Shown one piece after another: positions 42,340 to 64,000 of a stretch of 64,000 bases of DNA. The DNA comes from Candidatus Cloacimonadales bacterium (lineage in GTDB: Bacteria; Cloacimonadota; Cloacimonadia; Cloacimonadales; JAIOQZ01), in contig OY762463.1 in NCBI GenBank assembly GCA_963665815.1, positions 1,760,001 through 1,824,000 on the forward strand, read 5' to 3'. The notes under the pieces are model-generated. The model ran no database searches. It was not told the origin of the DNA and was given only the letters and a program-made list of their open reading frames with translations. A program made the position numbers and the translations under genes. Position 1 is the first letter of the stretch; every line of letters begins with the position of its first letter.

Positions 42340-42347
42340 GGACTAAA

Positions 42348-43583: not shown

Positions 43584-43697
43584 GTATTACGTTGAAACAA
43601 AATACTCGGATTTGATACATACTGAGTCTTAAGTCGTGCTGTAACCTGAGAAACCATTTAAATGAAACAAAATTTTATACTCCCATAAGGACATAAT

Positions 43698-44780: not shown

Positions 44781-44978
44781 TCTCATTAGCATTATATCAT
44801 TTAGTGTTGCTTAACTGTTTGATAGTGTTAAACAGATGATCCTGCAAGTGTATTAACTATTCATATAGTGACATTAACTGCAATATTTACTTTATTCTTG
44901 ACAATGAAGATACAGCTCTGACATTGGGAAAATGAAAATTACATTGTAGCATCTTTTCAAAAAGCATATACATTTAAC

Positions 44979-45006
44979 TGCTGAATGCTGAATGCTGAAT
45001 GCTGAA
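44979..45006 (+). repeat. Heptamer tandem repeat (TGCTGAA)x4
   Basis: Read directly; lies just upstream of the epimerase RBS. Confidence 0.9.
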
Positions 45007-45027
45007 TGAATAAGAATTGGAGATTAA

Positions 45028-45972
45028 ATGAAGAATTTATACTTAGTAACTGGTGGAGCTGGATTCATCGGATCAAATATAGTCAAAGAAATCCTTAATA
45101 GAGGGCATAAAGTCAGAGTACTTGACAACTTCTCAACAGGTAAAAGAGAGAACATTCATCAGTTTATGCCTAATCCAGATTTTGAACTGATAGAAGGTGA
45201 CATCAGAAGTTTCCATATAGTCAGAGATGCTGTAAAAGGTGTTGATTTTGTCCTACATCAAGGAGCACTGCCTTCTGTTCCGCGATCCATTAACGACCCA
45301 ATTACATCAAATGATGTAAATATACTTGGAACTCTTAATGTTCTTGAAGCTGCACGTGAATTTAACGTAAAAAGAGTAGTGTATGCATCTTCTTCTTCAG
45401 TTTATGGAAATAATCCGAAACTTCCCAAAGAAGAAAGTATGAAAATCTCACCATTATCTCCATATGCACTAACTAAGTATGCCGGAGAAAGATACTGTCA
45501 AATTTATACTCAGATTTATGGCGTAGAAACTGTTTGTCTTCGTTACTTCAACGTATTTGGCCCAAATCAGGATCCTAATTCTCAATATAGTGCTGTAATT
45601 CCCAAGTTCATAAATATAATGAGAAATGGAAAACAACCTATCATTTATGGAGATGGTGAGCAATCTCGTGATTTCACTTATGTTGCGAACAATGTACAGG
45701 CTAATCTTCTGGCATGTACTGCAGAAAACGCAGCTGGAAATGTTTATAATATTGCCTGTAATGAAAGATACACTCTTAATGATCTTGTTGCTCTTATTAA
45801 CAAGTACCTTAATACAACTATAGAACCGGTTTATCAGAAAGATAGACTTGGAGATGTAAAACACTCACTTGCATCTATTGGCAAAGCGGAGAATGATCTC
45901 GGTTTCAATGTAGTGCGTACTTTTGAAGAAGGGCTTGCGGAATTAATTGAGTATGTCAAGCAACAAGCCTGA
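45028..45972 (+). CDS. NAD-dependent nucleotide-sugar epimerase (WbpP-like UDP-GlcNAc 4-epimerase family)
   Basis: TGGAGFIGS, PSVPRSI, ASSSSVYG, YALTK and LRYFNVFGP.QDP.SQYSAVIP motifs. Confidence 0.9.
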   Translation: MKNLYLVTGGAGFIGSNIVKEILNRGHKVRVLDNFSTGKRENIHQFMPNPDFELIEGDIRSFHIVRDAVKGVDFVLHQGALPSVPRSINDPITSNDVNILGTLNVLEAAREFNVKRVVYASSSSVYGNNPKLPKEESMKISPLSPYALTKYAGERYCQIYTQIYGVETVCLRYFNVFGPNQDPNSQYSAVIPKFINIMRNGKQPIIYGDGEQSRDFTYVANNVQANLLACTAENAAGNVYNIACNERYTLNDLVALINKYLNTTIEPVYQKDRLGDVKHSLASIGKAENDLGFNVVRTFEEGLAELIEYVKQQA

Positions 45973-47035
45973 TATTTGTGTTTTCATAAGAACCCTTAAT
46001 ATTGGAGGAGCTGAAAGGCAAAGCATGTATCTTGTAGATATGCTCTCCAAATACTACAATACTTATCTTCTGGTTTTCCATGGAGAATTTGTTGATGATT
46101 CCTTTTTGGATTTTACAAAGAAAAATAACATCCGGCTTGTCAGACTTTCAGGTAATACAATACAGAAAATTGGGAAATTGTATCTGTTCTTCAGAAAGAA
46201 AAATATTGATATTGTTTTTGGATATCTTACTTTGAATAATGTTCTGGGGGGAATTTTCGGACGTCTCGCCGGAGTTAAATACATTATTGGTGGAGCTCGG
46301 GGAAGTGAAATTGAGAGATATAAAACTTCAATGTGCAAGTTCATTCATAATTATGTATCCAACTATACAATATTCAATAGTAATGCTGGAAGAAAAGTCT
46401 TTGAAGACTTCGGATTCAATCCTGACAAATCCGTTGTAATAAATAATTGCTTTTATCTGGATGAATTACCTCGAGAAAATGTAATCAAGGATAAACCGAT
46501 TATTATATCTGTTGGAAGATTTGAAGATGTCAAGGATTATATAACTGCCATCAATACAGCACATATTCTAAAAAATAAGTACAATCTTGATTTTGAATAT
46601 AGAATATGCGGCTATGGAAAAAATGAAATTGCCATCAGAAACCAGATCGAACTGATGAATCTACAGAACTGCATAACTGTTCACATTAAACCTGACAACT
46701 TAATGGAGCTTTACAGAACTTCCAACATTTACCTTTCAACATCATTGTTTGAAGGATTTTCAAATTCAATAATGGAGGCTCTGAGTTGTTCTCTGCCAGT
46801 TGTTTGCACTGAAGTCGGAGATAACAAATTGCTTGTAAAGAATGACAGTAACGGCTTCAGGCACAATGTTGGTGATGCAGAGTCACTAGCTGAATCAATA
46901 TACAAAATCTCTTCTGATTCAAAAATGCTGGAGAAAATGGGACATAACAGTTACACTCTTTTAAGAGATAATTATACCGAAGAACCTTTTTTGAGAAAAT
47001 ATCTGGAATTGATTTCCAGACTTATTTCTTCCTGA
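45953..47035 (+). CDS. Glycosyltransferase family 4
   Basis: GGAERQ, VGRFEDVKD and EGFSNSIMEAL..LPVVCTEVG motifs. Confidence 0.92.
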   Translation: MSSNKPDICVFIRTLNIGGAERQSMYLVDMLSKYYNTYLLVFHGEFVDDSFLDFTKKNNIRLVRLSGNTIQKIGKLYLFFRKKNIDIVFGYLTLNNVLGGIFGRLAGVKYIIGGARGSEIERYKTSMCKFIHNYVSNYTIFNSNAGRKVFEDFGFNPDKSVVINNCFYLDELPRENVIKDKPIIISVGRFEDVKDYITAINTAHILKNKYNLDFEYRICGYGKNEIAIRNQIELMNLQNCITVHIKPDNLMELYRTSNIYLSTSLFEGFSNSIMEALSCSLPVVCTEVGDNKLLVKNDSNGFRHNVGDAESLAESIYKISSDSKMLEKMGHNSYTLLRDNYTEEPFLRKYLELISRLISS

Positions 47036-48566
47036 TTTTACGTCCTATAAATTCCTTAAACTGTTTCCTTTCCCATCCTCTTAATCCTATAAAATAGTAA
47101 GTAATGAGATACAATCCACATGATAATGAAAGATGAAGCAATAGCTGAATGAAACTTTTAGGTTGATGCAGCATTGAAATACTCCAGGTTACAGCAGCAA
47201 TCAAAACACCAACTATAAGTGTTTTTAATACGGCCTGATTAATAAAATCTTTCAGCTTGATTTCTGCAAATCTACATGCTTTTGGAATGTTGTATACAAC
47301 AGCAAAAATTACATTAGGAATGATTGTACCAAGAGCAACACCAATAATTCCAATTTTGTTAATCAACAGAATACTTATTCCCAGATTTGCCAGACACTCC
47401 AGAACTGCAATTAAAGTAAGCTCTCTATGAACATTGCCCATCAATAGGATATATACCGATGAACTTCTCAGGAAAACCAGAATATACATAGATACAAGCA
47501 AAATCAGAGCACAGATATATCCCTGTTCTGCTCCCGGATTTGTATTCATTTCAAGCCATATATCGAGTAGTGGACGTACATAGATTATCAAAGGTATCAA
47601 GAACATTGTAGAAATAAATCCAAGCAGTCTGTTAGATTCAATAAGAATCTTACCCAGCTTAGATGTCTGATTTGAGGCAAACAAAGTGGCTGCTATAGGA
47701 CTTAGATTGTCCAGAAATTGAGAAGAGAATGATCGAAATGTTTCTGCCAGCCGTGATGCAATCTGATACACAGAGACCAATGCAACGGATGCAAAAATTG
47801 AGATAACCATCTGGTCTGTCCTGAAAATTATCAGGTTCGTGAATGTAATGATATAGGCGAATATAGAGAACTCCATCACCTTTTTTATACCTTTAATATC
47901 GTAATACCGAATACCTATCCTTAGCTTCGGCATCTTTCTGAAACAGAAAAAGCCCATTATAATGTTTCTGGCAAAGCTGGTTGACAATGTGATTATTGTA
48001 ATTACTTTCAGCTTATATCCAAAATGAAATGCTGTTAAAATAAGCACAAAATTAAGTATCATGAAAGTAAGCTGTATATAGTTTCTCAGCTTTATCTCGT
48101 GTAATCCCCTCAAGATCTCTGTAACGAAACCCGTAGGAAACACTATTGCTGTACCAATTCCAAACATTAGAAATACTGACTTGTAATATTCAATGTCTGT
48201 ACCTTCCTGAAACTTGAAAAGATCGCCAAGATAGAAAGAGAGTACATAAGTAGCTATTACAATTAATATGGCTAATCCGGAATAGTTAAAGAAAACAGTA
48301 GTAATAAGTCTGTTATATGATTCCCAGTCCTGAGTTGCAATATTTTCACTTGTGGATTTCTGGATTGCAGCCCCAAATCCAAAGTCAAGCAGCAGAGAAT
48401 AACCAAATATTGTCCAGAGTAAAGCCCAGAAGCCATAGCTTTCCGGAGAAAGTCCCATGAAAAGGACTCTGGTAAGAAATATCGTCATTACCATACCAAT
48501 TACGAGCTTTCCATAATTGGAAATCGTATTGGCAATCATTTTAGCTCTGAGGCCAGTACTGCTCAT
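47022..48566 (-). CDS. wzx: Oligosaccharide flippase (MOP/PST family)
   Basis: About 14 TM helices; YGFWAL..LLDFGFG, RTDQMVI and IGIIGVALGT motifs. Confidence 0.88.
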   Translation of the reverse strand: MSSTGLRAKMIANTISNYGKLVIGMVMTIFLTRVLFMGLSPESYGFWALLWTIFGYSLLLDFGFGAAIQKSTSENIATQDWESYNRLITTVFFNYSGLAILIVIATYVLSFYLGDLFKFQEGTDIEYYKSVFLMFGIGTAIVFPTGFVTEILRGLHEIKLRNYIQLTFMILNFVLILTAFHFGYKLKVITIITLSTSFARNIIMGFFCFRKMPKLRIGIRYYDIKGIKKVMEFSIFAYIITFTNLIIFRTDQMVISIFASVALVSVYQIASRLAETFRSFSSQFLDNLSPIAATLFASNQTSKLGKILIESNRLLGFISTMFLIPLIIYVRPLLDIWLEMNTNPGAEQGYICALILLVSMYILVFLRSSSVYILLMGNVHRELTLIAVLECLANLGISILLINKIGIIGVALGTIIPNVIFAVVYNIPKACRFAEIKLKDFINQAVLKTLIVGVLIAAVTWSISMLHQPKSFIQLLLHLSLSCGLYLITYYFIGLRGWERKQFKEFIGRKIRKK

Positions 48567-49370
48567 CTATTGTTTCTCAGTCTGTTTTGGTCTTCTCACA
48601 TTCTTTGAACTGAATATCTTGAAGTCAACAACTCTGGCATATTTGTTTTCCAGTTTTCTCTTGTTTTTATCAAGAACAACCTGTTCTCCATGTATATACA
48701 TTTTGAGACGATTTCTCTTAACACCTTTATTGACAAGATATTCTATAACACTGTCAGCTCTTCTTTTGGAAAGATCAATATTGTATTCTTTATCTCCCAT
48801 TTCATCTGCATATCCATGAATCTCCAGAAAATATTCCTTATTCTCATTCATAATGACAGCAACTTCTTCGAGTTTTGGCTGCTCTGATTTTTTAATGTTA
48901 TCTTTATCCAAATCAAAGAAAACTACAGGAAGAATCATTGCTACACTGCGTTCGATGATTTCACGTTCAACGATAATCTGCGGTTCCTGAACAAAATCAA
49001 GTGAATCATTATCCTGACTCTGTCTTTCCCACGGTTGATATTGTCGTTTTGGTTTTACATTCATGTATATAGTCATAGATTTGGCAACCGGTGGAACAGG
49101 AAGATAAATATTCTGCGGATACTGATTGGGGTAAATCGGTTCTGCAACGATATTTATTTCTTTCTTCTCTCCCCAACTGACATTAGTCTGAATTGGTGAT
49201 GTTCCGTAGTATACACCATCAATAAAAATCTTTGCTTTTGTCGGGTGAGTATTAATCTTGATATACCCATTATCCATACCAGGAGGCACCGGATGCTTAG
49301 TATATGTAACACAGGAAATCAAACTTAACAACATTCCTGTTAAAACTAATAATTTTGAAAATCTTTTCAT
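48567..49370 (-). CDS. PEGA plus OmpA-like peptidoglycan-binding lipoprotein
   Basis: Lipobox LISC; PEGA motif INTHPTKAKIFIDGVYYGTSP; OmpA_C motifs VFFDLDK and GYADEMG..YNIDLSKRRA. Confidence 0.85.
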   Translation of the reverse strand: MKRFSKLLVLTGMLLSLISCVTYTKHPVPPGMDNGYIKINTHPTKAKIFIDGVYYGTSPIQTNVSWGEKKEINIVAEPIYPNQYPQNIYLPVPPVAKSMTIYMNVKPKRQYQPWERQSQDNDSLDFVQEPQIIVEREIIERSVAMILPVVFFDLDKDNIKKSEQPKLEEVAVIMNENKEYFLEIHGYADEMGDKEYNIDLSKRRADSVIEYLVNKGVKRNRLKMYIHGEQVVLDKNKRKLENKYARVVDFKIFSSKNVRRPKQTEKQ

Positions 49371-50533
49371 CTTACACTCCGTTTATTCTGTAATCTGAAT
49401 TCCTCTAATACTATTTTTTCGATCTCAGATTGAACTGTATAGTAATTAAATTTATTTTTAACTGTTTCTCTGCCTGACTTCGCCAATAATGATATTAGTT
49501 CATGATCAAAATGAATATTCCTGATGCAGCTCAATAATGATTCTGCGTTACCATATTCAAATACAACACCATCTCTCATATTGGTGATAATCTCTGAAGC
49601 CCCATATCTGTCAGGAACAATTACCGTCATTCCATAAGACATTGCTTCAATTACAACACGACCAAAAGTTTCTGTAGCGAGTGAAGAAAAAACAAGTACA
49701 TCGTTCTGTTCATATACAGTTGCTATATCTGCAGCTTTTCCCTTCAGTTCCACTCTATCATCAAGATTCTTTTCTCTTACCAAATTCTTGAGAAAATCCA
49801 CATATTCTTCATCACCATTTCCGTATATATGGAATGTGAAATTTTTGTCTTCCAGATTTGAAAAAGCATCAATTGCAAGCTCATATCCTTTTCTGGGTTC
49901 AATTCTCCCACAACTGATATATCTGACTGTATTGCTCTCAGCTCTGTTTATGGACTCAGGAATATGCACACTACGCGGTACAACATAGTTCCTTTCAGCT
50001 CTGTACTTTCTAACAACCTCTTTCCCTACCCATTCTGATGGAGTTAAAGTATACTTCAACTTCAGTTTCCCTCCGACAGCACCGGGGAGCAAGTTCTTCA
50101 CTGCTCTTTTAATATAAGCTGCGGCAGATTCCTGTTCATAGACATCCGGCCAGAAATCTCCGATAGAAAAAAGTACAGGCAAATTCCTTTTCTGAACAGC
50201 AATAACCGGAGCAATTGAGATCTTCTGACAATTCCAGAAGAAGACAAAATCAGGTTTAAAACAATTAAGCACTTCTATAGTTTTTTTATAATTATACTTC
50301 TCGACATTATGCTTGTCAAGAGCATTACCATTCAAATAATCAATGTATTTAAGAATTCTCCATGGTTCCTTTTTAATGAATCCCGGCTCTGGTTGATTCT
50401 CTACTCTGTAGTTTCCTGTCAGCACAACCACATCATGATTTTTTTTTAGAAATTCTACAGTATCTGCACAGGAAATTTCATATCCCCCGATATAATGAGG
50501 AGGATACAAATTTGAAACTACCAGTATTCTCAT
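49367..50533 (-). CDS. Glycosyltransferase family 4
   Basis: SNLYPPHYIGGYE, GRIEPRKG and ETFGRVVIEAM motifs. Confidence 0.92.
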   Translation of the reverse strand: MRILVVSNLYPPHYIGGYEISCADTVEFLKKNHDVVVLTGNYRVENQPEPGFIKKEPWRILKYIDYLNGNALDKHNVEKYNYKKTIEVLNCFKPDFVFFWNCQKISIAPVIAVQKRNLPVLFSIGDFWPDVYEQESAAAYIKRAVKNLLPGAVGGKLKLKYTLTPSEWVGKEVVRKYRAERNYVVPRSVHIPESINRAESNTVRYISCGRIEPRKGYELAIDAFSNLEDKNFTFHIYGNGDEEYVDFLKNLVREKNLDDRVELKGKAADIATVYEQNDVLVFSSLATETFGRVVIEAMSYGMTVIVPDRYGASEIITNMRDGVVFEYGNAESLLSCIRNIHFDHELISLLAKSGRETVKNKFNYYTVQSEIEKIVLEEFRLQNKRSVR

Positions 50534-51471
50534 TTCAAAAAAATTCTTCTTATCTTTGTTGATATTTCATGTCTTACAGAAGCAATCAGCTCTCTGATGA
50601 AAGCTTCTTTCATAATCTTCTGTTTGTTAGCAGGCTGGAAAGAGTAAGGCAAATCCGGTAGTTCATATCCTCTGGAACGAGCCCAGTGAATAAACTGCAT
50701 TACCATTTCGTAAAACGGAATATTCTTATATGACCAGGTCTGCCACGGTTTAGGAAACAAACTGAAATGAATAATCTTTGCATCCATATTTTTATCATAA
50801 GGATAGACCCCAACTTCTGGACTGTCATCAGCAAAAGCAAACAATGAGTTCAAAACAGATTCATCTGTCATAAAGTAAGCAGTACTGCTTTTATTGTAGA
50901 CGCCTATAGTATTTTCGTCTATCACTTTCTCCATCTGGTTTTTCCATCTTTTAATGAAAGGCAGATGAGATTTATGAATAATAAAACAATTCGTTTCACA
51001 CACGGTTGATATAGTTGGAAAAGCACGTTCTCGTATATCCCATTTCCATATCTTCAAAACTTTTTCAGGAATAGTCCCGAATTTTTCTCCCCATGAATAT
51101 CTGTCCCGGTACACAAGACCATTTTCATGAAAATCCCTGAACCTGATATGAAAAAACGGTTCCGTTGCAACAAATTCATTCTTTATATTTCCGTTAACAA
51201 TACAATCTGCATCAACCCAGGTAGTAAATTCTGTATTCGAGGAAAATATTGCATCTGGTTTTTGAGTACAGACACTTCTTTTTGTCATCCTACCTTCAGA
51301 ATACACTTTAACATTGTCAAACTGCTGCAGCATATCGCGTTCTTTATCTGAGAGATCATATCCCATAACATGAACAGGATCTTCAACTCCATGATAACGA
51401 AGTGATATTATCAGGAGAAATGCTCCCCACAGGTAATTACTGTCACAGGCCGTTACGAAAGTATTATTCAT
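50530..51471 (-). CDS. GT-A fold glycosyltransferase, GT8-like
   Basis: VTACDSNY, WVDADC (DxD), TDESVLN and IIHF...KPW motifs. Confidence 0.7.
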   Translation of the reverse strand: MNNTFVTACDSNYLWGAFLLIISLRYHGVEDPVHVMGYDLSDKERDMLQQFDNVKVYSEGRMTKRSVCTQKPDAIFSSNTEFTTWVDADCIVNGNIKNEFVATEPFFHIRFRDFHENGLVYRDRYSWGEKFGTIPEKVLKIWKWDIRERAFPTISTVCETNCFIIHKSHLPFIKRWKNQMEKVIDENTIGVYNKSSTAYFMTDESVLNSLFAFADDSPEVGVYPYDKNMDAKIIHFSLFPKPWQTWSYKNIPFYEMVMQFIHWARSRGYELPDLPYSFQPANKQKIMKEAFIRELIASVRHEISTKIRRIFLK

Positions 51472-51878
51472 TTTCTGAGCAACTCTCTCAAATATTCCTG
51501 GATATGCATATCAGGTAGAATATCTATTCCGGCAAAGGATTTCAGAGAATACAGTATCAGGAATGCAACCAGAATTAAACTGATTAGAATACCAAGATAC
51601 ATTAAAAGCTGGAATACGAGAGTAATAGCTCTCTGACCGGCAGTGGCTTTTCCGACTCTGCTTTTCCTTCTCTGATCAACACCGATAATCCACACGAAAT
51701 ACAATCTCTTTATGAACCAGAATGTGAATCTGATATCAAAATATTTCTTTCCCAATGATGATGGAGAGAGTCTTCTCAGAACAGCTTTAATCTCTTTCTT
51801 CTGTTCATAATTTAAGCTTTCCTGTATTGTAGGATTGATCATATTGAACAGATAGTCTTCATCTCTTCTTTTAGCCAT
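51468..51878 (-). CDS. Small membrane protein of unknown function
   Basis: Overlaps both neighbours; DIRFTFW..RLYFVWIIG.DQRR followed by a TM helix and LYSLKSFAGIDI. Confidence 0.7.
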   Translation of the reverse strand: MAKRRDEDYLFNMINPTIQESLNYEQKKEIKAVLRRLSPSSLGKKYFDIRFTFWFIKRLYFVWIIGVDQRRKSRVGKATAGQRAITLVFQLLMYLGILISLILVAFLILYSLKSFAGIDILPDMHIQEYLRELLRK

Positions 51879-53217
51879 TTTCAATACCTCTATCAGTTTG
51901 ATCTTTATTAACATAAACTAATCTATGCATAGCTCCAATCACAGCAAAAACTAACATTAACTGATAAAAATTGTTAGTCTGCTTTAAAACCCACTCCAGC
52001 GATGATTCCAGATATATTGCCAGTAATCCACCAACTAAAGCAACGGGAATAAACACATATTTCGTTTTTCTGTACTTAAACAGATTCTTCAGATTTAAAA
52101 AATACATATATAATATGAATGTCAAGAAAACACCTAAGTTATGCCATCCTGTTTCGGCGGCAATCATTAAATATATTGTCTCAACAAGTCCATGACGTTC
52201 CATCGGGTCAGTTTCATCATGCATTTGAATGTGAGTACCATAATTAAATGGTGCATTAATAGCTTGACCAAAGTTATTCAACCCAACACCCAGCTTTTTA
52301 TCATCAGCCATTTTAACTGCTGCTTCCGCAAGAAGCACACGAGTAGTTTTTGATGCCTCCGGTGCTGTCTGATATCTCGTAATAATTGAATCCATTGCCT
52401 TAAGTAATGCAAGGGCTCCCAGAATAAGAAGAACTGCAGTGATGGCAATCTTTTTCCTGTTTACACCTACAAACATGGATAACGTCCACATTACAACCAG
52501 TGAGAGTCCGTATAATGCCATACCTGCTCTTGATAGAGTCGCAATAATTGATACACTGCCAAAACCTAGAATCAGTATCCAGACCATCAATCTTTTAACC
52601 TTTGAATTGAACAAGTATGAAAAAAAGAAGCTATTCAGTATAATAACATACATCACAAGTGAGTTCTGGTGTGGGAATGGTCCGGGAGATTGATAAATTC
52701 TATAGATATATTTCTGTTGCATCTGCATAAAGAATATGAATATTGAAATAATTGCAAAGTTTATCATCAATTCCTGAAATTTTGAATAATCATCAATATA
52801 ATTGTAAAGCACCCACCAGAATATATACATACGTACCATTTTCCAGACTTCAAACATGGAATACAGTGGAACAGGAGCATTAACAATAGACAGTATACTG
52901 AAAAAGAAGTAGATTCCATATAGAATTGTTCCCTTGGGAAGTCTCAGTTCTGACAAACTTTTTCGTGAGATTAGAACAAGAAAAATTACAAGTGTTGCCA
53001 GATCCACAAGTCCAACCTCGAAACCCTTGGATGTTCCCCTGTAAAACTCCATAGATACAAAGTTAATATCTTCCATTTTCGCTGTAAAAAATATCATCAG
53101 GAAAAAAGCAATCTTTTCGAAGATTCTGTATTGAAGGGAAAGGAAATATCCTATAGGTACACCAAATATCAGAACAATGAAAAATACCAGATACTTGTAT
53201 TCAATTCCAAAAAGCAT
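51871..53217 (-). CDS. Wzy polymerase / O-antigen ligase family protein
   Basis: Polytopic; GPFPHQNSL, TLSRAG, GVGLNNF and YLMIAAETG motifs. Confidence 0.85.
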   Translation of the reverse strand: MLFGIEYKYLVFFIVLIFGVPIGYFLSLQYRIFEKIAFFLMIFFTAKMEDINFVSMEFYRGTSKGFEVGLVDLATLVIFLVLISRKSLSELRLPKGTILYGIYFFFSILSIVNAPVPLYSMFEVWKMVRMYIFWWVLYNYIDDYSKFQELMINFAIISIFIFFMQMQQKYIYRIYQSPGPFPHQNSLVMYVIILNSFFFSYLFNSKVKRLMVWILILGFGSVSIIATLSRAGMALYGLSLVVMWTLSMFVGVNRKKIAITAVLLILGALALLKAMDSIITRYQTAPEASKTTRVLLAEAAVKMADDKKLGVGLNNFGQAINAPFNYGTHIQMHDETDPMERHGLVETIYLMIAAETGWHNLGVFLTFILYMYFLNLKNLFKYRKTKYVFIPVALVGGLLAIYLESSLEWVLKQTNNFYQLMLVFAVIGAMHRLVYVNKDQTDRGIENG

Positions 53218-53272
53218 GTGAAATCCTTATATCAGAAACGTGCTGGTTCCGAATAATCTGCGGAAATCATAC

Positions 53273-54304
53273 TTAATTATCATTTATAAGGTCATTTACA
53301 ATGTAATATCCCTGAATTGCATTAAGACTTGGAATTACAAGGTCAAGTACTTCATTCCAGTTTGCAAAAAGACTGGCAGGAACAAAAACGATATCATTCG
53401 GTTTTAATGGGAAATCCTGCACTTCTGCACGCATTACAGCTTTTGTATCAATTTTAAACAGCCTCGGATGAGACAGATTTCCACGTATAACATAAACTGT
53501 TCTTTTAGCAGTAGGTCGGAATCCATTAGCAAAACTGATAATCTGCATCAGAGTCATATTTTCTTTGAATGCATAGTGTCCTTGAGTATTAACTTCACCC
53601 AGAACGTAAATTTCTCTGTTTATTGCAGATGGTATATATATGTAATCTTTGTCTGCCAAAGGGATGTTATAAAGCATATTACCGTTTTTAATCAGCTCCA
53701 TGAAGTCTATAGGCAGAATTCTGCCATTTCTCAGAAGATAGGTTCTTTCCAGATCAGCCAATTCTGTAGTATTGTTCTGGAAGTAACCAACTGCAAGACC
53801 TCCACCTTCAGCAATAGCATCAAGGATTCTCATATCACCATCAAGAACTACTCTTCCCGGGCGTGTAATTTTTCCAAGTATAGTAACACTGGAACTTGTC
53901 AGCTGGACAGCTTTCATTGTAACTTGCGGATGCCTTATATATTCACTGAGAGCTTTTTCGATTTTTGTGGAAGCTTCAGGAATGGTCAATCCTTCTACAT
54001 GAAGGTCAGGTATTAATTTCAGAGATATTGTTCCATCCGATTTTACCATAACACCCATAGTTGTAAGTTCTTCTTCATCATAAACGAAGATGTCAAAAAC
54101 GTCTTCAGCCCCTATTGTATATTTTTTTATTGGAAGTGTATGCAGAGCTTTTAGCTCTTCCTCTATTTTCTTCTCATCTTTCTTTTCAACTTGAACAGAC
54201 TCAAGAAACTGAGGCATAGCAGTTACAGATTTCAGTTCCGGCTTCACTCTTACACAACTAAGTAAAATTATAGATAACAGCGTTAAAATTATAAGTTTTT
54301 TCAT
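53273..54304 (-). CDS. wza: Polysaccharide export lipoprotein (Wza/OPX, Poly_export plus SLBB domains)
   Basis: Lipobox LLSC; YTIGAEDVF..DGTISLKLI..VEGLT, VLGEVNTQG and LKPNDIVFVP motifs. Confidence 0.9.
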   Translation of the reverse strand: MKKLIILTLLSIILLSCVRVKPELKSVTAMPQFLESVQVEKKDEKKIEEELKALHTLPIKKYTIGAEDVFDIFVYDEEELTTMGVMVKSDGTISLKLIPDLHVEGLTIPEASTKIEKALSEYIRHPQVTMKAVQLTSSSVTILGKITRPGRVVLDGDMRILDAIAEGGGLAVGYFQNNTTELADLERTYLLRNGRILPIDFMELIKNGNMLYNIPLADKDYIYIPSAINREIYVLGEVNTQGHYAFKENMTLMQIISFANGFRPTAKRTVYVIRGNLSHPRLFKIDTKAVMRAEVQDFPLKPNDIVFVPASLFANWNEVLDLVIPSLNAIQGYYIVNDLINDN

Positions 54305-54319
54305 AAATACTCCGTACTC

Positions 54320-56317: not shown

Positions 56318-56457
56318 AATTTCCTTAAATCCTTAACTTATTGTATTTAATCCAATTACAATACATATTTTAAAATCAAAAAAATATCATCTTATTAATT
56401 ACTTATCTCACTATATGTCAAGATATTTAACACTACCAACTGATTATTAATTTATAA

Positions 56458-59400
56458 TCAATCAATAATATCGCTTATATAACCTGCAATCTGCTCTACT
56501 TGAGGTTCTTTTAATATCGTGTCGTGAGTAGCATTTATTTTGAACATTTGAACTTTCTCAACAAAGATATCCCATGCCATATATGGATCGTCGACAAAAC
56601 TTGCCGGTTGTTGTAAAGCTTTAAACAACACAACTCCACCTTTGCATGGACGATAATTATACCTGCACACAGCTGCGATATTCTTTTTCCTTACAGCAGA
56701 ACGATTTGCAAACATACCCTGATCAAAAAAAGTATCTTCATCACCAAAATTCTGGTGATTTCCGAATCGATTTCTGATTTTTGTTTTCAGTATCCGCAAC
56801 GTCTCTTTTAAGCCTAACTCTACCAACAGCTTTATCTTACTCTTGAAATACTTCTTCCTTAGAGATTCAACTGGTCTGAATGCCCAGGTATCAAAAAGGA
56901 ACAAATGTTTCACATCGACTTTCTTCCATCTGAGCTGCTGCATCATTTCGTATGCTACTGTTCCACCAAAACACCAACCTCCGATATATACAGCTCCGCC
57001 CGGATGCCTTTCCTTAATAATCCTGACGTAATGTGCCGCCGTTTCCTCTACAGACTCAAGTGCCTTATCCGGATTCATTAATCCCGGTGCTTGAAAACCA
57101 TATATTGGCAGATCAGCTGGGAGATGTCTTATCAAATTCACATAACCCAGTAAATCTCCTGGCAGTGGATGCACCAGATACAAAGGTGTTTTCTTACTGT
57201 TTCCCTTTTGAAGTTCAACAAGTGAATAATCCCCGAACACTCCATCTTGAATGATTGTCTGCTCAAGTTTTCCTGCCAGTTCCTCCAGATCTTTATGTCT
57301 GAAAAGATCCTGTACTTTGAGACTTAAGCCTGCCTGACCCAGCCTGTTTATTACAAGCATACTAAGAACTGAATTTCCACCGAGTTCAAAGAAATTGTTA
57401 TTGATTCCAACATTATCAATACCAAGTACATCTCCGATTATGTTACACAATACTTCCTGATCAGGTGTTCCCGCTTTAACAATTTCATCCTGATTTTTCT
57501 TTATAGTTGCATCAGGAACAGGTAACTTCTTTCTGTCAATTTTACCATTTGCCGTAAGTGGAAACTCATCCATATAAAGGAAAACTCCCGGAATCATATA
57601 GTCAGGAAGCCTGTTTGCAATGGAATCAGCAATTTTTTTTACCGAAATTTCCTTATCCGCAATATAGTAACCGCATAACTGCAGCATTTCGTTTCTGTCT
57701 TTGAACGTATGAACAACAGCATCATTGAATAAACCGGTCTTCATCAGTTCATTTTCAATTTCACCAAGTTCAATTCTATGTCCCCTGATCTTAACCTGAA
57801 AGTCATTTCTACCAAAGCATTCAAGCCTGCCATCTACATCAAATCTAACAATATCTCCTGTTCTGTAAACAATTTCACTCACTCCTGAAGGATTTGTGAA
57901 ATCTACAAATTTCTGAGCAGTTAAATCTTCTCTGTTATGATAACCTGCAGTAATACCTTTTCCTCCAATCAGCAGCTCTCCTTTTACACCGTCAGGAACT
58001 GGGTTCAACTCAGAATCAACAACGTAAAGAGTTGTATTGACAACAGCATGACCAATGTATATCCTGCTGTCTGTCTCCAGTATTCTGTGAATAACAGACC
58101 ATACTGTAGTCTCAGTCGGTCCGTACATATTCCATAACTCACCGCACATCTTCAAAAGTCCTGATGCAAGATCATAAGATACCGGTTCTCCCCCGCACAG
58201 CACTTTCAGAGTCTCCGAGCCTTTCCAGCCAATATCTCTCAGCATTTTCCAGGTTGAAGGTGTTGCCTGCATAATAGTAATTTTTTCTGATTCTATCATT
58301 TCAGCAAGTTTCCCTGCATCGTAAACATCATCCCGAGAAGCCAGAATAAGTTCAGCTCCGGTAACAAGAGGAAGAAATACTTCCAGTACAGAGATATCGA
58401 AACTCAATGGAGTTACAGCGAGAAGTTTATCACCAATAGTCATTCCCGGTTCTTTCTGCATAGAAAGTATGAAATTTGTGACAGCACTGTGAGGCACTTT
58501 CACAGCTTTAGGTTTTCCGGTTGTTCCTGATGTATAAATATAGTATGCTATAGAATCAGGTTTAGAAGCATCTGCAGCATTTTCTGCTTCTTTGATGTCT
58601 TCAGATTTTATATCTTCCCAGATTCTGGCATTTTCAAAATCTATTCTTTGAGTATACTTCTTCTCAATAATAATCTGTTCTGGAGCAGAATCTTCTGCCA
58701 TAAAAAGAAGTCTGTCATTCGGAAACTCTGGATCAAGATACAGATATGCCGCTCCAACTCTCTGTATTGCACATATCAGAGCAATAAGATCAACAGATCG
58801 GTCCATCATTACAGCTATGATTCTGCTGTCAGCGTCGTGTTTTACCTTATTGCAATACGACTGCACCAGTTCACCAAATTCTCCATAAGTAATCGAAGTA
58901 TCTCCGAATTTTACTGCCGTTCTGTCCTGACAATCCTGTATTCTGTCAATTATCAGATTCTGGATAGTAGTATTCGGGAACTTTATCTCAGCTTTTCTAT
59001 TTCTTTCATCAATTAATTCTTTTTCAGCATCTGACAGTAGACCAAGATTCTTAATCTGAGTTCTGCTGTTACTTACCATCTGAGAAATAATTGCGTTATA
59101 ATGCTCTCCGGTTTTTTCTGAAAACCATGCCTCGAATAAATCAGGATTATACTCGAATCGGCAGTGCATACTGCCTTCAATCTCAACTATTTCCATCGTA
59201 ATATCAAGTTTTGATGTATCATTAGCCAGTATCTTCGCCTTTAACTCCAATCCCGGAATATCCAGATCAATAGAAGGCAGATTCTGGAACACAAACATCA
59301 CCTGAAAGAGTGGATGTCGGCTCAGATCACGTTCAGGATTCATCTTATCTACTATCGATTTAAAAGGATATCCGCTATGCGTGAGATTATCAAGGGTTTC

Positions 59401-62400
59401 TTTTCGAACAATATCTATTACATCACTTACATTATCATCTTTATGCACAGGAATTCTGTATAGCTGATTATCCATGAATGAGCCGATAACACCGTCATAA
59501 TCCGGATCCAGCCTGTTTGCCGCCGGTGAACCTATCAGAATATCTTCCTGAGCCGTGTATTTATAAAGCAGTAACCTGAATGCTGATAACAGCAGCATAA
59601 ATTTACTGGCACTTTTTTCTCTTGCCAACCTACTCAACTTACTGCAAAGATCTTTATTTACAGTGAAATAAATATTAGATCCATTTGTTGTCTGAACAGC
59701 AGGTCTTTCCTTCTGGGTCGGTAAATCAATTGGTTCAGGCAAAGGATTTAGTTTACCGGTCCAGTATTTCTCAAGCATTGCCTGCCTTTGCCTGTCAACA
59801 GGCTTATTAACAAAGTCTGCAAAAGTCCTGTCGGATTCAATCAGTTTCACAGATTTATTACTGATAAAAGATGTATAAATTGCAGTCAGTTCATTTATAA
59901 GAATACTTACTGACCAGCCATCCAGTACAATGTGATGGAAACAAATAATCATTCTATGATCATACTGAGATTTTCTCCAAACTTTAATCTTGAATAAAGG
60001 TCCTTCAGACAGATTAAATGAATGCCTTGTTACTTCTCTGTAAGCATCATCAAATTCTTTATCACTCCAGTTTTCTTTAGATACATCTATTACTTCAACA
60101 TCAACTTTATTGTAATCCATCGGCTTCTGAACAGGCAGACCGTTCCTTTCAAAGAATACACTTCTAAGAGCTTCATGTCTCTGCATCAGTTTGATAAGGC
60201 TTTTATTCATGACATAATCATCAAACAAGCCTTTTATTTCAAACAGAACAGGTATGTTATAAGCAACGTTATTTTTGTCCATTTTCCACAGGAACCACAA
60301 ACCTTCCTGCTGTATTGTAAGGAGATATTCTTTCCCGGAAGTTGACGTTGCAGATGTTTTCCCGAGTGTTTCAGCTTTGAATTCAGAATGGCTTATCTCA
60401 AGCAAAATATCGTCTATGGTTGAGTTATTCAGAAAATCATGCAGTGATAGCTTTGCATTGAATTTTTTCTCCACTCGGGCAATAAACTGCATTGCAGTAA
60501 GTGAATTCCCACCATTCTCAAAGAAATCATGCCTATCATCAATGTCTGTTTTTAAAACATCTTCCATTACATGAATAATATCAGCTCTGACATCAGTCTG
60601 CTCTAATGTTCCATCATCTCGTACAATGTTTCCCGTAACAAGTTCTATCAGATCCTTGAGGCTACTCTTATTCATAAAATCATGAATGGAAAGGTTTACA
60701 TTGAACTCTTTCTCAATGCGTGATATCAACTGCATTGCTGTAAGGGAATGTCCACCGTTCTCAAAGAAATCTGAATCAGGACTGTCATCATCTGATTTCA
60801 GTATTTCCTTCCATATTTTCACTACTCCCGCAATAGAACCATTGTCTGTTTTCTTCTCGGTTATTTCATCAGGTAGAATTCCTTTAAGACATTCGAGCGT
60901 ATCTCTGATTGATGTATGCTCCATAAAATCTGAGATTGATATGGCTACATTGAACTCTTTGTCAATTCGACTTATCATCTGCATTGCTGTTAGAGAATGA
61001 CCACCTGACTCAAAGAAACTTGAGTCTAAATCTATATTATCATTTTTTAAAACATCTCTAACAATCTGAAGAAGTCTCTGCCCAATCATTCCCGTTTTAT
61101 GAGAAATCTTCTTCTTCTCTGTTTTCCATACAGGTTCAGGCAAAACCTTTCTGTTTATCTTTCCCGAAGTATTGTACTCAAACTTATCCACGATCATTAT
61201 CAATGCAGGAACCATATATGAAGGAAGAGTATCTTTCATGAATGCCTTAAGACTGTCCGTGTTCAAAAAAACATTATCTTCCGGAAGTACATAAGCTATA
61301 AGCTGCTTCATCCCGGTTCTGTCTTCAACTGCAACTACAATGCATTCTGAGACTCCGTCATAATCTCTGCATAATCTTTCTATTTCACCCGGTTCAATTC
61401 TATGACCGCGTATTTTAACCTGAAAATCTATTCTTCCGGCTATCTCTAACAAATTGTTCTCGTTAATCCTGACCAGATCACCGGTTCTGTATATCAGCCC
61501 TTTTCCTGTAACCGGATTCTTAACAAAGCTTTTTGCAGTTTTCTCCGGATCGTTCAAATAACCTTTTGCTAATCCTGCACCACCAATGCACAATTCTCCC
61601 GATACACCTTTTGGAACAGGCCTCATGTTTCTGTCGAGAACGTAAATTTGAGTATTAGCAATAGGTCTGCCGATAGGAAAATCATTATCCTCATCTCCGG
61701 GTTCATACCAGGTAGAAATAATCGTTGTCTCAGTAGGACCATAAGTGTTCAGCAATCTGATTCTACCCTGAGTTTTTTCTTTCCAGATATTATATATTGT
61801 TAGATCAGCCTTTTCTCCACCTATAATCACTAATCTGACACAATCAGGAATTACATATTCATCAAGATGCTTTACCAGCTCATGCCAGTATGCCGTAGCC
61901 AGATTCAAAACTGTAATCTGTTCGGATTCCACATATCTCAGAAATCCGGGAATTGATGAAAAAGCTTCTTCAGTTCGTGGTATCAGTGTTGCTCCAGTTA
62001 GAAATGTAGGAAATATTTCTTCGACTGACAGATCAAAACTTATTGATCCAAACTGTAGATTTCTGTCTTTTTCTGTAAGCTCATAATCGTCGATCACTGC
62101 CAGATTATGGTTCAGCATTCCCCTGTTAAGCACTTGCACACCTTTGGGTTTACCGGTAGAACCGCTTGTATAGATCAAATACGCGACATCTTCCCCACCG
62201 GCAATAGTTTTAACTTCTGGTAGTTTTGCTTTCAGAACTTCAGCGAGCTGCACATTATAAACAACCTGTTTTATATCAAATCCTCTGATTCTGGTATAGT
62301 TTTCACTATCTGTGACGATAAGTTTTGCCCCGGAATCATTCAACATATATTCAATTCTATCATCAGGATAAGCTGCATCAAGCGGCATATATGCTGCCCC

Positions 62401-64000
62401 AGCTCGCAAAATACTAAGCAATGCCACATATAATTCGGGGCTTCTATCCATTACTACGGCGACAATATCACCTTTTCCTGTTCCATTGGCAGCAAAATAT
62501 CGGCTCCACTTGTCTGTAAGAGTCTTCAGTTCTGCATATGTAATTGTAATATCATTCATTTTTATAGCGATGTTATCAGAGAACATCCTGCAACGTTCTG
62601 TGAAAATCTCGCCATAAGATTTATTCAGAGGAAAATCTTTTTCTGTATTATTAAAGTCATCGATGGTTTCTTTATATTCAGATTCATTCAGTACTGATAC
62701 TTCATGAATTGGTGTTTTATCTGCATTTAAAACCTGATCAAAAACATCGGCAAAGCTGTCTGCCATGGATTCTATCAGAGAATCTGACAGGATATCGGTA
62801 TTGTATTCAATCCAGCACTCATAATTACCATCAATATCATCTACAGTCAAAGTGAAATCAAGCTTTGATGTATTGTTTCCAATCTCCTTCATTGTAATCT
62901 CAAGATTATGGAATTTCATTTCCGGTAGTGGAAAATTCTGAAATACGAACATTGCCTGAAATAATGGATGACGAGAACGATCCGGCTTATAGCCCAGATC
63001 TTTTATAAGCTCATCAAAGGGATATTCTGAGTTGGAGAAAGCTGAAATGACATTTGCATATACTTTTTTTGCAAAGTCCCCGAATGAAATATTCTCCGCA
63101 AGATTACTGCGTATTGGCAGCAGGTTTGTAAATATACCAAATATATTCTGTTTATCCGGGTGGTTCCTACCTGCGTATGGAGACCCTACAACAACATCAT
63201 CTGATGCGCCATATACTGAAAGTATAATATTCAGAGCAGACAGAAATACGGAGTATTCACTGATATGGTTAGATTCGGCATATTCTCTTATTTTGTTGGA
63301 TATGCGAGTATTAAGATGCCACCAGTATCTTTTACCGGAATCAGTCTGAACAGGCGGCCTTCTCTTTTTTAAAGGAAGCTCCAGGCTTTCTGGGAAAGGC
63401 AGAAGTTTTTCCTGCCAATAGTTGAGCTGCTTCTCGTACTTTTCTGCAGGAGTAGTCTTTTTCGACCATTCGGAGTAATCACCATAACTGACAGTTAATT
63501 CCGGTAATTCAACATCTCTCTGTTCTACAAGAGATGAATATATTTCCTTCCATTCTCTGAGGAACAGCCCCATAGACCAGCCATCTGTGATAATGTGATG
63601 TATTGTCAAAAAAAGTACAAACTTTTCAGCATCATATTTTACAAGCTTAGAATAAAACAGATTCCCTTTTTCCAGATCGAACACATACCTACCTGTCTCA
63701 ATCTCTATATCTTTCAGTTTGTTCATTCTGTTCTTATGGGAGGATATATCTGTGAAATCAATCTGTACTTCTTCGGGAGGATTTACTACTTGAAAGGGTA
63801 AATCTTTCATAGTTACAAAAGCTGTTCTCAATGATGCATGTCTTTCTGCAAGTTTAGTGAAAGTCTGTTGTAAAAAAGATCTGTCAATTTCTCCGCGAAT
63901 ATCTATTCTTAGAGGTATATTGTAGTCTATTCTGTCTTTGTCCAACATCCAGAAATACCATAGACCATGCTGAGAATAAGATAATGGGGATATATTCTGT
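56458..64000 (-). CDS. Non-ribosomal peptide synthetase, C-terminal part (C-A-T-T-T-C-A-T-TE); 5' end lies beyond the window
   Basis: C domains HHIITDGWS and HHIVLDGWS. A domains YTSGSTGKPKG and YTSGTTGKPKA. PCP motifs GGHSL, GGHSL, GGNSL and GGNSV. TE motif GWCFGG. The frame stays open to 64000 (QNISPLSYSQHGLWYFW). Confidence 0.95.
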   Translation of the reverse strand, partial: QNISPLSYSQHGLWYFWMLDKDRIDYNIPLRIDIRGEIDRSFLQQTFTKLAERHASLRTAFVTMKDLPFQVVNPPEEVQIDFTDISSHKNRMNKLKDIEIETGRYVFDLEKGNLFYSKLVKYDAEKFVLFLTIHHIITDGWSMGLFLREWKEIYSSLVEQRDVELPELTVSYGDYSEWSKKTTPAEKYEKQLNYWQEKLLPFPESLELPLKKRRPPVQTDSGKRYWWHLNTRISNKIREYAESNHISEYSVFLSALNIILSVYGASDDVVVGSPYAGRNHPDKQNIFGIFTNLLPIRSNLAENISFGDFAKKVYANVISAFSNSEYPFDELIKDLGYKPDRSRHPLFQAMFVFQNFPLPEMKFHNLEITMKEIGNNTSKLDFTLTVDDIDGNYECWIEYNTDILSDSLIESMADSFADVFDQVLNADKTPIHEVSVLNESEYKETIDDFNNTEKDFPLNKSYGEIFTERCRMFSDNIAIKMNDITITYAELKTLTDKWSRYFAANGTGKGDIVAVVMDRSPELYVALLSILRAGAAYMPLDAAYPDDRIEYMLNDSGAKLIVTDSENYTRIRGFDIKQVVYNVQLAEVLKAKLPEVKTIAGGEDVAYLIYTSGSTGKPKGVQVLNRGMLNHNLAVIDDYELTEKDRNLQFGSISFDLSVEEIFPTFLTGATLIPRTEEAFSSIPGFLRYVESEQITVLNLATAYWHELVKHLDEYVIPDCVRLVIIGGEKADLTIYNIWKEKTQGRIRLLNTYGPTETTIISTWYEPGDEDNDFPIGRPIANTQIYVLDRNMRPVPKGVSGELCIGGAGLAKGYLNDPEKTAKSFVKNPVTGKGLIYRTGDLVRINENNLLEIAGRIDFQVKIRGHRIEPGEIERLCRDYDGVSECIVVAVEDRTGMKQLIAYVLPEDNVFLNTDSLKAFMKDTLPSYMVPALIMIVDKFEYNTSGKINRKVLPEPVWKTEKKKISHKTGMIGQRLLQIVRDVLKNDNIDLDSSFFESGGHSLTAMQMISRIDKEFNVAISISDFMEHTSIRDTLECLKGILPDEITEKKTDNGSIAGVVKIWKEILKSDDDSPDSDFFENGGHSLTAMQLISRIEKEFNVNLSIHDFMNKSSLKDLIELVTGNIVRDDGTLEQTDVRADIIHVMEDVLKTDIDDRHDFFENGGNSLTAMQFIARVEKKFNAKLSLHDFLNNSTIDDILLEISHSEFKAETLGKTSATSTSGKEYLLTIQQEGLWFLWKMDKNNVAYNIPVLFEIKGLFDDYVMNKSLIKLMQRHEALRSVFFERNGLPVQKPMDYNKVDVEVIDVSKENWSDKEFDDAYREVTRHSFNLSEGPLFKIKVWRKSQYDHRMIICFHHIVLDGWSVSILINELTAIYTSFISNKSVKLIESDRTFADFVNKPVDRQRQAMLEKYWTGKLNPLPEPIDLPTQKERPAVQTTNGSNIYFTVNKDLCSKLSRLAREKSASKFMLLLSAFRLLLYKYTAQEDILIGSPAANRLDPDYDGVIGSFMDNQLYRIPVHKDDNVSDVIDIVRKETLDNLTHSGYPFKSIVDKMNPERDLSRHPLFQVMFVFQNLPSIDLDIPGLELKAKILANDTSKLDITMEIVEIEGSMHCRFEYNPDLFEAWFSEKTGEHYNAIISQMVSNSRTQIKNLGLLSDAEKELIDERNRKAEIKFPNTTIQNLIIDRIQDCQDRTAVKFGDTSITYGEFGELVQSYCNKVKHDADSRIIAVMMDRSVDLIALICAIQRVGAAYLYLDPEFPNDRLLFMAEDSAPEQIIIEKKYTQRIDFENARIWEDIKSEDIKEAENAADASKPDSIAYYIYTSGTTGKPKAVKVPHSAVTNFILSMQKEPGMTIGDKLLAVTPLSFDISVLEVFLPLVTGAELILASRDDVYDAGKLAEMIESEKITIMQATPSTWKMLRDIGWKGSETLKVLCGGEPVSYDLASGLLKMCGELWNMYGPTETTVWSVIHRILETDSRIYIGHAVVNTTLYVVDSELNPVPDGVKGELLIGGKGITAGYHNREDLTAQKFVDFTNPSGVSEIVYRTGDIVRFDVDGRLECFGRNDFQVKIRGHRIELGEIENELMKTGLFNDAVVHTFKDRNEMLQLCGYYIADKEISVKKIADSIANRLPDYMIPGVFLYMDEFPLTANGKIDRKKLPVPDATIKKNQDEIVKAGTPDQEVLCNIIGDVLGIDNVGINNNFFELGGNSVLSMLVINRLGQAGLSLKVQDLFRHKDLEELAGKLEQTIIQDGVFGDYSLVELQKGNSKKTPLYLVHPLPGDLLGYVNLIRHLPADLPIYGFQAPGLMNPDKALESVEETAAHYVRIIKERHPGGAVYIGGWCFGGTVAYEMMQQLRWKKVDVKHLFLFDTWAFRPVESLRKKYFKSKIKLLVELGLKETLRILKTKIRNRFGNHQNFGDEDTFFDQGMFANRSAVRKKNIAAVCRYNYRPCKGGVVLFKALQQPASFVDDPYMAWDIFVEKVQMFKINATHDTILKEPQVEQIAGYISDIID

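Follow-up and report, generated by a model that had tools for sequence, protein, structure and literature searches.

A nonribosomal peptide synthetase with a Cys thioesterase, nested in a Cloacimonadota Wzx/Wzy exopolysaccharide locus, as a candidate polysaccharide tailoring module

The NRPS gene within a Wzx/Wzy exopolysaccharide locus

The stretch of DNA analysed here (the window) comprises 64,000 nucleotides (nt) of a Candidatus Cloacimonadales genome made of a single contig of 3.96 Mb (G000; GCA_963665815.1, contig OY762463.1; window G000:C1:1760001-1824000). It carries part of an exopolysaccharide (EPS) locus of the Wzx/Wzy type together with the 3' part of a gene for a large nonribosomal peptide synthetase (NRPS), which is the subject of this study. 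An earlier note, made from the letters of the window, had the NRPS heading the EPS operon. This is not so; the gene continues past the window end and 17 further co-oriented genes lie upstream of it (G000:C1:1825841-1845281, minus strand). Since all intergenic gaps from extended position 81050 to the NRPS are 23 nt or less, the NRPS is nested mid-way in a co-oriented locus of about 38 kb, with sugar genes on both flanks. ORF calls (open reading frames) confirmed the strand and position of every ORF named in that note, and the coordinates confirmed the 140-nt gap between the NRPS and wzc and the tight packing from wzy to wzx, with junctions of -44, -4, -4, -4 and 0 nt (Table 1).

Table 1. Features of the NRPS-containing EPS locus. 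Extended coordinates are genome positions minus 1,760,000.
Feature	Position	Strand	Remarks
wzx-like flippase, MOP superfamily	47022-48566	-	final gene of locus; label from weak own match and orthologues
PEGA-OmpA lipoprotein	48567-49370	-	profile search
GT4 glycosyltransferase	49367-50533	-	profile search
GT8-like glycosyltransferase	50530-51471	-	DAD and H..xKPW motifs in sequence; PF01501 in homologues
148-aa protein, 2 transmembrane (TM) segments	51468-51914	-	conserved in cluster
wzy-like polymerase	51871-53217	-	no own Pfam match; orthologues match PF04932
wza/OPX export lipoprotein	53273-54304	-	Poly_export (PF02563) and SLBB, above cut-off
wzc-like co-polymerase, PCP-2a-like	54320-56317	-	2 TM; Walker A-like GKS
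NRPS-wzc gap, 140 nt	56318-56457	-	candidate promoter or operator for wzc-wzx
NRPS, 3126 aa	56458-65838 extended (G000:C1:1816458-1825838)	-	runs beyond window end
Thioesterase domain of NRPS	56461-57195	-	Cys nucleophile (GWCFGG, Cys2956), Asp2983, His3105
Three tandem T domains of NRPS, module 2	60394-61101	-	33-48% mutual identity
GNAT, RimJ/RimL-type	65841-66419 extended	-	2 nt before NRPS start
Upstream sugar genes	66443-79122 extended	-	
Upstream regulators	79125-85281 extended	-	

Genes for priming, glycosyl transfer, flipping and export are all present in the locus, together with a putative gene for polymerisation. Reading upstream from the NRPS, the genes encode a GNAT protein, GalE, a 376-aa protein, a fusion of NTP-transferase, LbH and sugar-transferase domains, a STAS protein and an epimerase, then a priming sugar transferase, a sugar-transferase/WecG fusion, two GT4 proteins, a 97-aa ORF, a double GT4 and a GT2. 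A regulatory head of the partner-switching and c-di-GMP type follows, with PAS-SpoIIE-HATPase, REC-HD and REC-PAS-GGDEF proteins and a histidine kinase. The priming transferase is a 239-aa protein that matched PF02397 (E 2e-69) and, above cut-off, TIGR03025; GT4, GT2 and WecG matches were also found in the locus. The wzx-like protein of the window matched NF041503 below cut-off (E 1e-9), and its verrucomicrobial orthologue matched PF01943 above cut-off. PF04932 was found above cut-off in six of eight relatives of the wzy-like protein; this family also includes ligases, and we infer the role as Wzy polymerase from the Wza and Wzc-like neighbours. Precomputed PF01501 matches were present in 5 of 80 homologues of the GT8-like protein. 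The Wzc-like protein combines a Wzz-type N-terminus with a TIGR03007 match (E 2e-24), and eight of nine copies retain the GK[S/T] motif. No Tyr cluster was found in the final 30 residues of this protein or of eight orthologues, which have scattered Tyr only, and no Wzb-type phosphatase was seen among the locus proteins. Named homologues of the window proteins were mostly from Candidatus Cloacimonadota, and a plasmid search with wzy returned just three matches, all at 24%. For the 148-aa protein, ESM Atlas has a nearby cluster with the automatic name '3-phosphoshikimate 1-carboxyvinyltransferase' at 138 aa; this is probably a wrong label that has been propagated.

The gap before wzc contains a 25-nt block, identical in the congener G119, that includes TGTTAA-N5-TTGACA. 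The earlier note had raised this AT-rich gap as a possible independent promoter. The TTGACA is real and lies inside the conserved block; a sigma-70 scan did not call the site (three sites against 3.7 expected), and its -10 hexamer is poor. No terminator was called in the gap, and the palindrome found there occurs seven times in the genome against 3.5 expected. An internal promoter or operator for wzc-wzx is possible; if present, it would leave the NRPS coupled to the upstream sugar genes. By eye, a TTGACA-18-TATACT site can also be read upstream of the histidine kinase gene.

Domain organisation and predicted product of the NRPS

The full-length protein starts with an adenylation (A) domain and has the order A1-T-C-A2-T-T-T-C-A3-T-TE, in which C stands for condensation, T for carrier and TE for thioesterase domains. 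The TE is terminal, as had been read from the window, and the modules number three where two had been visible. The HHxxxDG motif is intact in both C domains, and so is the Ser of all five T domains. A phosphopantetheinyl transferase (PPTase)-like ORF lies unlinked at G000:C1:1052748-1053425 and is 35% identical over 106 aa to a PF01648 protein.

Motif extraction gave the pocket codes DAWFYGLVIK (A1), DLENIGTIIK (A2) and DILQLGMVWK (A3). The whole A3 code is one that we take to be that of a Gly domain. The substrate of A1 may be hydrophobic, although this assignment is uncertain. The closest match of A2 in the PDB was ApnA A1 (E 1e-48), an Arg/Tyr domain. In the Lys-specific A domain of Pls, a Glu four residues past the conserved Asp binds the side-chain amine (structural passages of PMC11253843), and since A2 has a Glu at the equivalent position, a basic residue (Arg, Lys or Orn) is predicted for it. 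The same passages describe a Gln/Trp pair in the Gly-specific A domain of DhbF, and A3 has a similar pair. The predicted product is therefore a hydrophobic-basic-Gly peptide, in which the substrate names follow pocket-code assignments and those passages. A literature search with six pocket codes found no match.

The tandem T triplet is present in G000 and in its congener G119, and the three-module relative in G100 has three T domains in total. Three carriers in tandem may increase flux, by analogy with tandem acyl carrier proteins (ACPs).

The TE was most similar to that of AB3403 (4ZXH) among PDB entries, both by sequence (E 6e-30) and by fold, and Pks13 TEs were among the next matches. Its Cys and His were invariant in 14 of 14 aligned family members, and the Asp/Glu of the triad aligned with the AB3403 position after beta-6. 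According to passages of PMC11298585, AB3403 is the only other structurally known Cys-TE besides SulM and ObiF1, and its Asp follows beta-6. A TE closing a beta-lactone or beta-lactam was rejected on the position of the triad and on the Gly code.

No starter C domain, acyl ligase or ACP was found in the NRPS or in the locus genes scanned. Because the NRPS lacks a starter C domain and an acyl ligase, a lipid anchor is not encoded by it; the idea that it makes a lipopeptidyl anchor for the polymer was rejected on these grounds. A siderophore was also rejected, as no receptor or aryl-acid genes are present in the locus. Profile scans of the block proteins agreed with the earlier note in finding no siderophore receptor, peptide exporter or tailoring oxidoreductase. 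The GC content (0.38) and GC at third codon positions (GC3, 0.32) of the NRPS are like those of its neighbours, and recent foreign insertion was rejected on this basis.

Occurrence of the NRPS in Cloacimonadota and in other phyla

We surveyed 232 Cloacimonadota genomes with a TE family threshold of E<1e-70; weaker TE matches in G222 and G225 belong to a different NRPS with a GNCFGG motif and were excluded. The EPS cluster was present in 55 genomes. The wzy orthologue was found in 54, the GT8-like gene in 40, the C domain in 21 and the TE family in 17. All 17 TE-family carriers have the EPS cluster, 16 of them by wzy and G121 by other genes; in this genome (81% complete) wzc and wza orthologues were found at 45% and 54%, and the TE is followed directly by the SpoIIE and GT2 genes of the cluster. 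The naive probability of this co-occurrence is 3e-12 counted by genome, p is about 4e-5 by genus (8/8 against 21/66) and about 0.006 by family (4/4 against 6/17), with the limit that kin are not independent and that a single family supplies 11 of the 17 carriers. In genus g7, the sole cluster-bearing genome of 21 is the NRPS-bearing one.

The NRPS is nested in the cluster in three carriers (G000, G119 and G121) and lies at contig ends in two (G100 and G012), the remaining copies being unlinked. The slot between the 376-aa gene and wzc varies, and holds the NRPS, an alkaline-phosphatase-family gene or nothing. The EPS loci read in 14 other genomes were largely syntenic, with no NRPS in any of the stretches. 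The NRPS is 82% identical to that of the congener G119, in which the EPS genes are 75-97% identical. Cloacimonadota NRPSs comprise either three modules or two, the latter in some cases with a formyltransferase inside the chain; in six genomes a GNAT gene is a neighbour of the NRPS. In G121 the three-module NRPS (L017, G121:C53) is broken into three ORFs by stops, which may reflect a split gene, a broken gene or sequencing error.

When GTDB was scanned with the TE alignment, 262 matches to the pattern were obtained, of which 219 were confirmed, and the best 80 of the 219 yielded 79 loci. Homologues of the core EPS cluster were counted within 10 kb using Cloacimonadota proteins as the sole references. 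At least one was found in 31 of these 79 loci and at least two in 24; when the count is confined to the 57 loci flanked by 5 kb or more of non-NRPS sequence, the numbers become 27 and 23. Twelve of the 79 loci are from Cloacimonadota, and 23 of the 67 others carry at least two EPS homologues. The titles of these EPS-linked loci (best 80 of 219) name Verrucomicrobiota, Victivallales, Thermodesulfobacteriota, Deltaproteobacteria and Sandaracinaceae; two other EPS-linked titles belong to TEs that group with the verrucomicrobial ones and are possibly wrong labels. In the Sandaracinaceae genome, a complete set of wzx, wzy, wza and wzc lies next to the NRPS. On a quick TE tree, EPS-linked TEs fell into at least five separate groups interspersed with unlinked TEs; this tree is unrooted, without outgroup, with an unresolved backbone and 15 duplicate loci dropped, and it gives groups, not the order of events. 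Relatives of the NRPS recur within orthologous clusters of other phyla. No cultured carrier was found among the 79 GTDB titles (best 80 of 219), in which one Microcoleus record lacked EPS neighbours, or among the named rows of the metagenome search.

One verrucomicrobial order was sampled with 201 genomes, partly overlapping the GTDB set. A wzx orthologue was found in 21 of these genomes, and the TE abuts wzx in 9. Each of the 11 genomes whose TE is top-tier (E<1e-60) has the wzx orthologue, as compared to 10 of the 190 others, and none of the remaining 135 weaker TE matches was near wzx. Of the 12 wzx loci in which no TE abuts wzx, nine were read; wherever the preceding gene was legible, it encoded a glycosyltransferase or was one of the other cluster genes. 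The verrucomicrobial proteins have the form A-T-TE or GNAT-A-T-TE, or retain a remnant of C. Outside Cloacimonadota the minimal A-T-TE and GNAT-A-T-TE proteins often abut wzx; they cannot make a peptide bond and would therefore activate and hand on one residue.

In metagenomes, 287 proteins related to the TE were found at E<=1e-30, and 80 loci were classified as GWC[FY]GG (14), Ser-TE (41), other Cys motifs (7) or without readable motif (18). A wzx or alkaline-phosphatase-family gene was near the NRPS in 6 of the 14 GWC[FY]GG loci, whereas none of the 41 Ser-TE control loci had wzx, wzy, wzc, an alkaline-phosphatase-family gene or the 376-aa gene nearby. Six loci (L188, L238, L190, L201, L216 and L242) carry Ser-TE NRPSs near priming sugar transferases or wza, which suggests that more NRPS families occur in EPS loci.

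An NRPS-PPTase-GT2-GT4 cassette without EPS export genes is conserved in L068:726-10759 and in Kiritimatiellales relatives; of 19 genomes with a top-tier TE, 17 have the GT2 orthologue, on the same contig in 10. Relatives with an internal formyltransferase (F) have the order A-T-C-F-A-T-TE (L024:7260-14294, L025:6233-13228 and L068:3722-10759). In these the formyltransferase domain directly precedes the A domain for the basic residue, an unusual internal placement. EPS loci from Desulfobacterota, Myxococcota and an unclassified genome (L073:10775-14320, L102:10835-13129 and L093:14454-17153) have a GH9 glycanase as a direct or close neighbour of the NRPS.

The 376-aa protein (L001:12465-13595, minus strand; extended 67465-68595) is a frequent member of the cluster in which the motif LGGGYGRGEG...ND is invariant. 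Its family had no significant match when PDB sequences were searched, and the structural model of the protein (pLDDT 94) best matched aminoglycoside nucleotidyltransferases (7UY4, Z 14.0, rmsd 3.4, 221 aligned). On the strength of this model it is a candidate sugar nucleotidyl-transferase that could provide a second decoration. Several other genes of the window lie outside the locus. An alkaline-phosphatase/NPP-family gene (32927-34105, minus strand) is 42% identical to the one adjacent to wzc elsewhere, and is located 13 kb from wzx here. A second small glycan cluster (41452-47035, plus strand) with an NTP transferase, a Wzy_C-like protein, a GT4, an epimerase and a GT4 converges on wzx, overlapping its 3' end by 14 nt; wzy had no significant match to the Wzy_C-like protein (42348-43583). 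Two large proteins with VIT, carboxypeptidase-regulatory-like and TPR domains are encoded at 27420-31100 (minus strand) and 37700-41209 (plus strand).

Candidate function and comparison with known systems

We propose that the NRPS is an optional tailoring module of the Wzx/Wzy exopolysaccharide and that its Cys-TE decorates the repeat unit with an aminoacyl or peptidyl group, and we give this reading an even chance of being correct. The unlinked Sfp-type PPTase would prime the carriers, and the NRPS would assemble the short hydrophobic-basic-Gly peptide predicted from its sequence. N-acylation of an amine would fall to the GNAT, or to the GNAT or formyltransferase domain that is fused to the chain in relatives, and this cap could also keep the side chain from cyclising the thioester. 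The TE would accept the product as a Cys thioester and pass it to a hydroxyl or amine of the lipid-linked repeat unit in the cytoplasm, before the flip by Wzx. A cytoplasmic transfer step is proposed because no membrane transferase was found and because the gene is frequently positioned directly before wzx. The polymer would then bear aminoacyl or peptidyl side groups that alter its charge or stickiness, and the added residue would vary by lineage, like the other tailoring genes of the cluster. Each half of the scheme has a counterpart: DltA and AlmE activate amino acids for cell-envelope glycoconjugates (passages of PMC11253843), and the Pks13 TE unloads its product onto polyols, preferably trehalose (passages of PMC9210659).

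A functional tie to the polysaccharide is supported by the nesting, by cluster carriage in 17 of 17 TE-family genomes and by the recurrence across phyla. Several observations weigh against the tailoring role. Within Cloacimonadota, 38 of the 54 wzy carriers lack the TE family, including the single-contig genome G101, and the NRPS is unlinked from the EPS cluster in 12 of its 17 carriers. Among the well-flanked GTDB loci (best 80 of 219), 30 of 57 have no core EPS homologue, including Desulfomonile, Pedosphaera and myxococcal NRPSs. The verrucomicrobial result was obtained with a query that was itself a wzx-adjacent TE. Eleven of the 41 Ser-TE metagenome loci lie near generic EPS genes, and because of this the EPS link may partly be a general co-location of biofilm genes. 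Besides GNAT, no MBOAT-type or other dedicated transferase was found among the locus proteins scanned. AB3403, the nearest relative with a solved structure, is encoded in an operon that has been linked to a free compound resembling a lipopeptide (passages of PMC5376624). Finally, one amide known from a Vibrio EPS is Ala on C6 of GalA, joined through the amine of the amino acid (passages of PMC5983295), and as this bond is made on the carboxyl of a uronic acid, it represents the opposite chemistry to acyl transfer by a TE.

The earlier note had held that its idea would fail if homologous EPS operons generally lacked the NRPS, or the reverse. Most of them do lack it, as seen in the 38 of 54 Cloacimonadota and in 12 of 21 verrucomicrobial wzx carriers without an abutting TE, so that the EPS cluster is independent of the NRPS and the NRPS would at most be an optional decoration. 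The reverse dependence, of the NRPS on the cluster, holds.

More broadly, and with somewhat less than even confidence, we suggest that the widespread Cys-TE NRPS family consists of assembly-line peptidyl-transferases that add an N-capped basic amino acid, dipeptide or tripeptide directly, as an ester or amide, to the lipid-linked repeat before its flip. Gain and loss of modules would vary the side group as serotype genes vary sugars, in Cloacimonadota, PVC bacteria, Desulfobacterota and Myxococcota. In the open-access literature, with subscription papers mostly outside the search, no description of this NRPS family or of an NRPS acylating a Wzy polymer was found. If the proposal is true, a modular NRPS writes peptides on a Wzy polymer via its thioesterase, which would provide a genetic source for matrix amino acids in uncultured environmental bacteria, a function for a class of orphan NRPS clusters currently mined as antibiotic pathways, and a pointer to the activity of AB3403-type Cys-TEs. 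With the A-T-TE relatives of about 900 aa, such as L101:8090-10786, a single soluble protein would suffice to address the question in vitro, and these relatives are potential tools for decorating polysaccharides. A minimal relative of the GNAT-A-T-TE form is encoded at L085:6743-10792.

The NRPS might instead make a free small molecule (an N-acyl amino acid, a di- or tripeptide or a lactam of the basic residue) that serves as a signal, surfactant or matrix additive and is co-regulated with EPS for biofilm or floc formation, a possibility that we take seriously but doubt. The terminal C-A(Gly)-T-TE(Cys) shares its layout and TE motif with AB3403, and the AB3403 operon is required both for Ac-505, a free compound, and for traits of biofilm formation and adherence (passages of PMC5376624). 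The same explanation would accommodate the partner-switching and c-di-GMP-type regulatory head upstream, the Ser-TE NRPSs that likewise lie near EPS genes, and the 12 of 17 Cloacimonadota carriers in which an unlinked copy is kept without proximity. However, no dedicated exporter was found in the locus, whereas the A. baumannii operon has a proposed secretion gene (passages of PMC5376624). By our reasoning, A-T-TE forms that neither cyclise nor transfer their amino acid would burn ATP for the release of a free one, and the predicted residue differs from clade to clade (basic, Pro-like, tripeptide) whereas the place of the NRPS in the EPS cluster stays constant. Even with a free product, this would be a conserved biofilm-linked NRPS family with predictable small products.

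It is unlikely that the product is a small diffusible glycopeptide, in which the peptide is joined to a single repeat unit or short oligosaccharide that Wzx flips and that is then released. Such a route has been proposed, not proven, for carenaemin of Collimonas, for which a PKS-NRPS locus (PKS, polyketide synthase) and a Wzy-type locus are both required (passages of PMC8313283), and it would suit the Kiritimatiellales cassette, which has no export genes and keeps its GT2 in 17 of 19 genomes (same contig in 10). Yet the locus studied here retains the Wzy-like, Wzc-like and Wza proteins of a machinery that makes and exports a long polymer, and an NRPS is missing from the majority of its copies. 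Chance insertion of a mobile GNAT-NRPS cassette with no tie to the polysaccharide, to which the nesting in just 3 of 17 carriers and the GNAT-NRPS pair at an unrelated site in G086 (a pair also present in G100 and G012) would conform, is very improbable and largely refuted by the recurrence in orthologous clusters across several phyla and TE groups. Two distinct in-cluster positions within one family (G000/G119 against G121), GC and GC3 values like those of the neighbours and a congener identity (82%) within the range of the EPS genes also weigh against it.

Among known systems, the Syp-type EPS loci of Vibrio fischeri combine Wzx/Wzy with STAS, a SpoIIE/HATPase partner-switching protein and an OmpA protein, as found here; to our knowledge they contain no NRPS. 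The nucleophile of the Pks13 TE is Ser. This mycobacterial enzyme, a near structural neighbour of the TE, resembles the proposed scheme in that a type I TE unloads a megasynthase product on the sugar trehalose (passages of PMC9210659). It differs in being a PKS with a lipid cargo and a free disaccharide as acceptor, and the likeness in TE fold is general and shows no function.

DltABCD and AlmEFG also use an A domain and a carrier, here fused, for the aminoacylation of envelope glycoconjugates (passages of PMC11253843). Their ligase and carrier stand alone and work with a separate transferase, whereas here the NRPS is fused and the TE is the proposed transferase. The Dlt and Alm transferases are DltB (MBOAT)/DltD and AlmG. 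By analogy, the locus plausibly works like Dlt/Alm, of which it is not a member.

An orphan roseobacter cluster with NRPS, PKS, glycosyltransferase and PPTase genes (passages of PMC4337385) is similar in gene content to the Kiritimatiellales form but contains a PKS, and the locus proteins have no ketosynthase match. The TEs of ObiF1 and SulM have the Cys nucleophile in common with this TE; their triad Asp lies after beta-7 and they close a beta-lactone or beta-lactam on a beta-substituted residue (passages of PMC11298585), whereas here the Asp lies after beta-6 and the last residue is predicted to be Gly.

The nearest known enzyme is AB3403 (A1S_0115) of Acinetobacter baumannii (4ZXH/4ZXI; Ac-505 operon), which shares the C-A(Gly)-T-TE layout, the Cys in GWCFGG and the acid after beta-6. 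It has one module and works with a stand-alone ligase, an ACP and an acyl-CoA dehydrogenase, and the passages of PMC5376624 name no polysaccharide genes in its operon. An adenylating ligase, ACP or acyl-CoA dehydrogenase of the Ac-505 type was not found in our locus, where the NRPS has three modules, starts with an A domain, and is accompanied by GNAT and a whole Wzx/Wzy locus. Collectively, these comparisons place the locus in the Wzx/Wzy pathway, the NRPS among the modular NRPSs and its last module in the AB3403 type.

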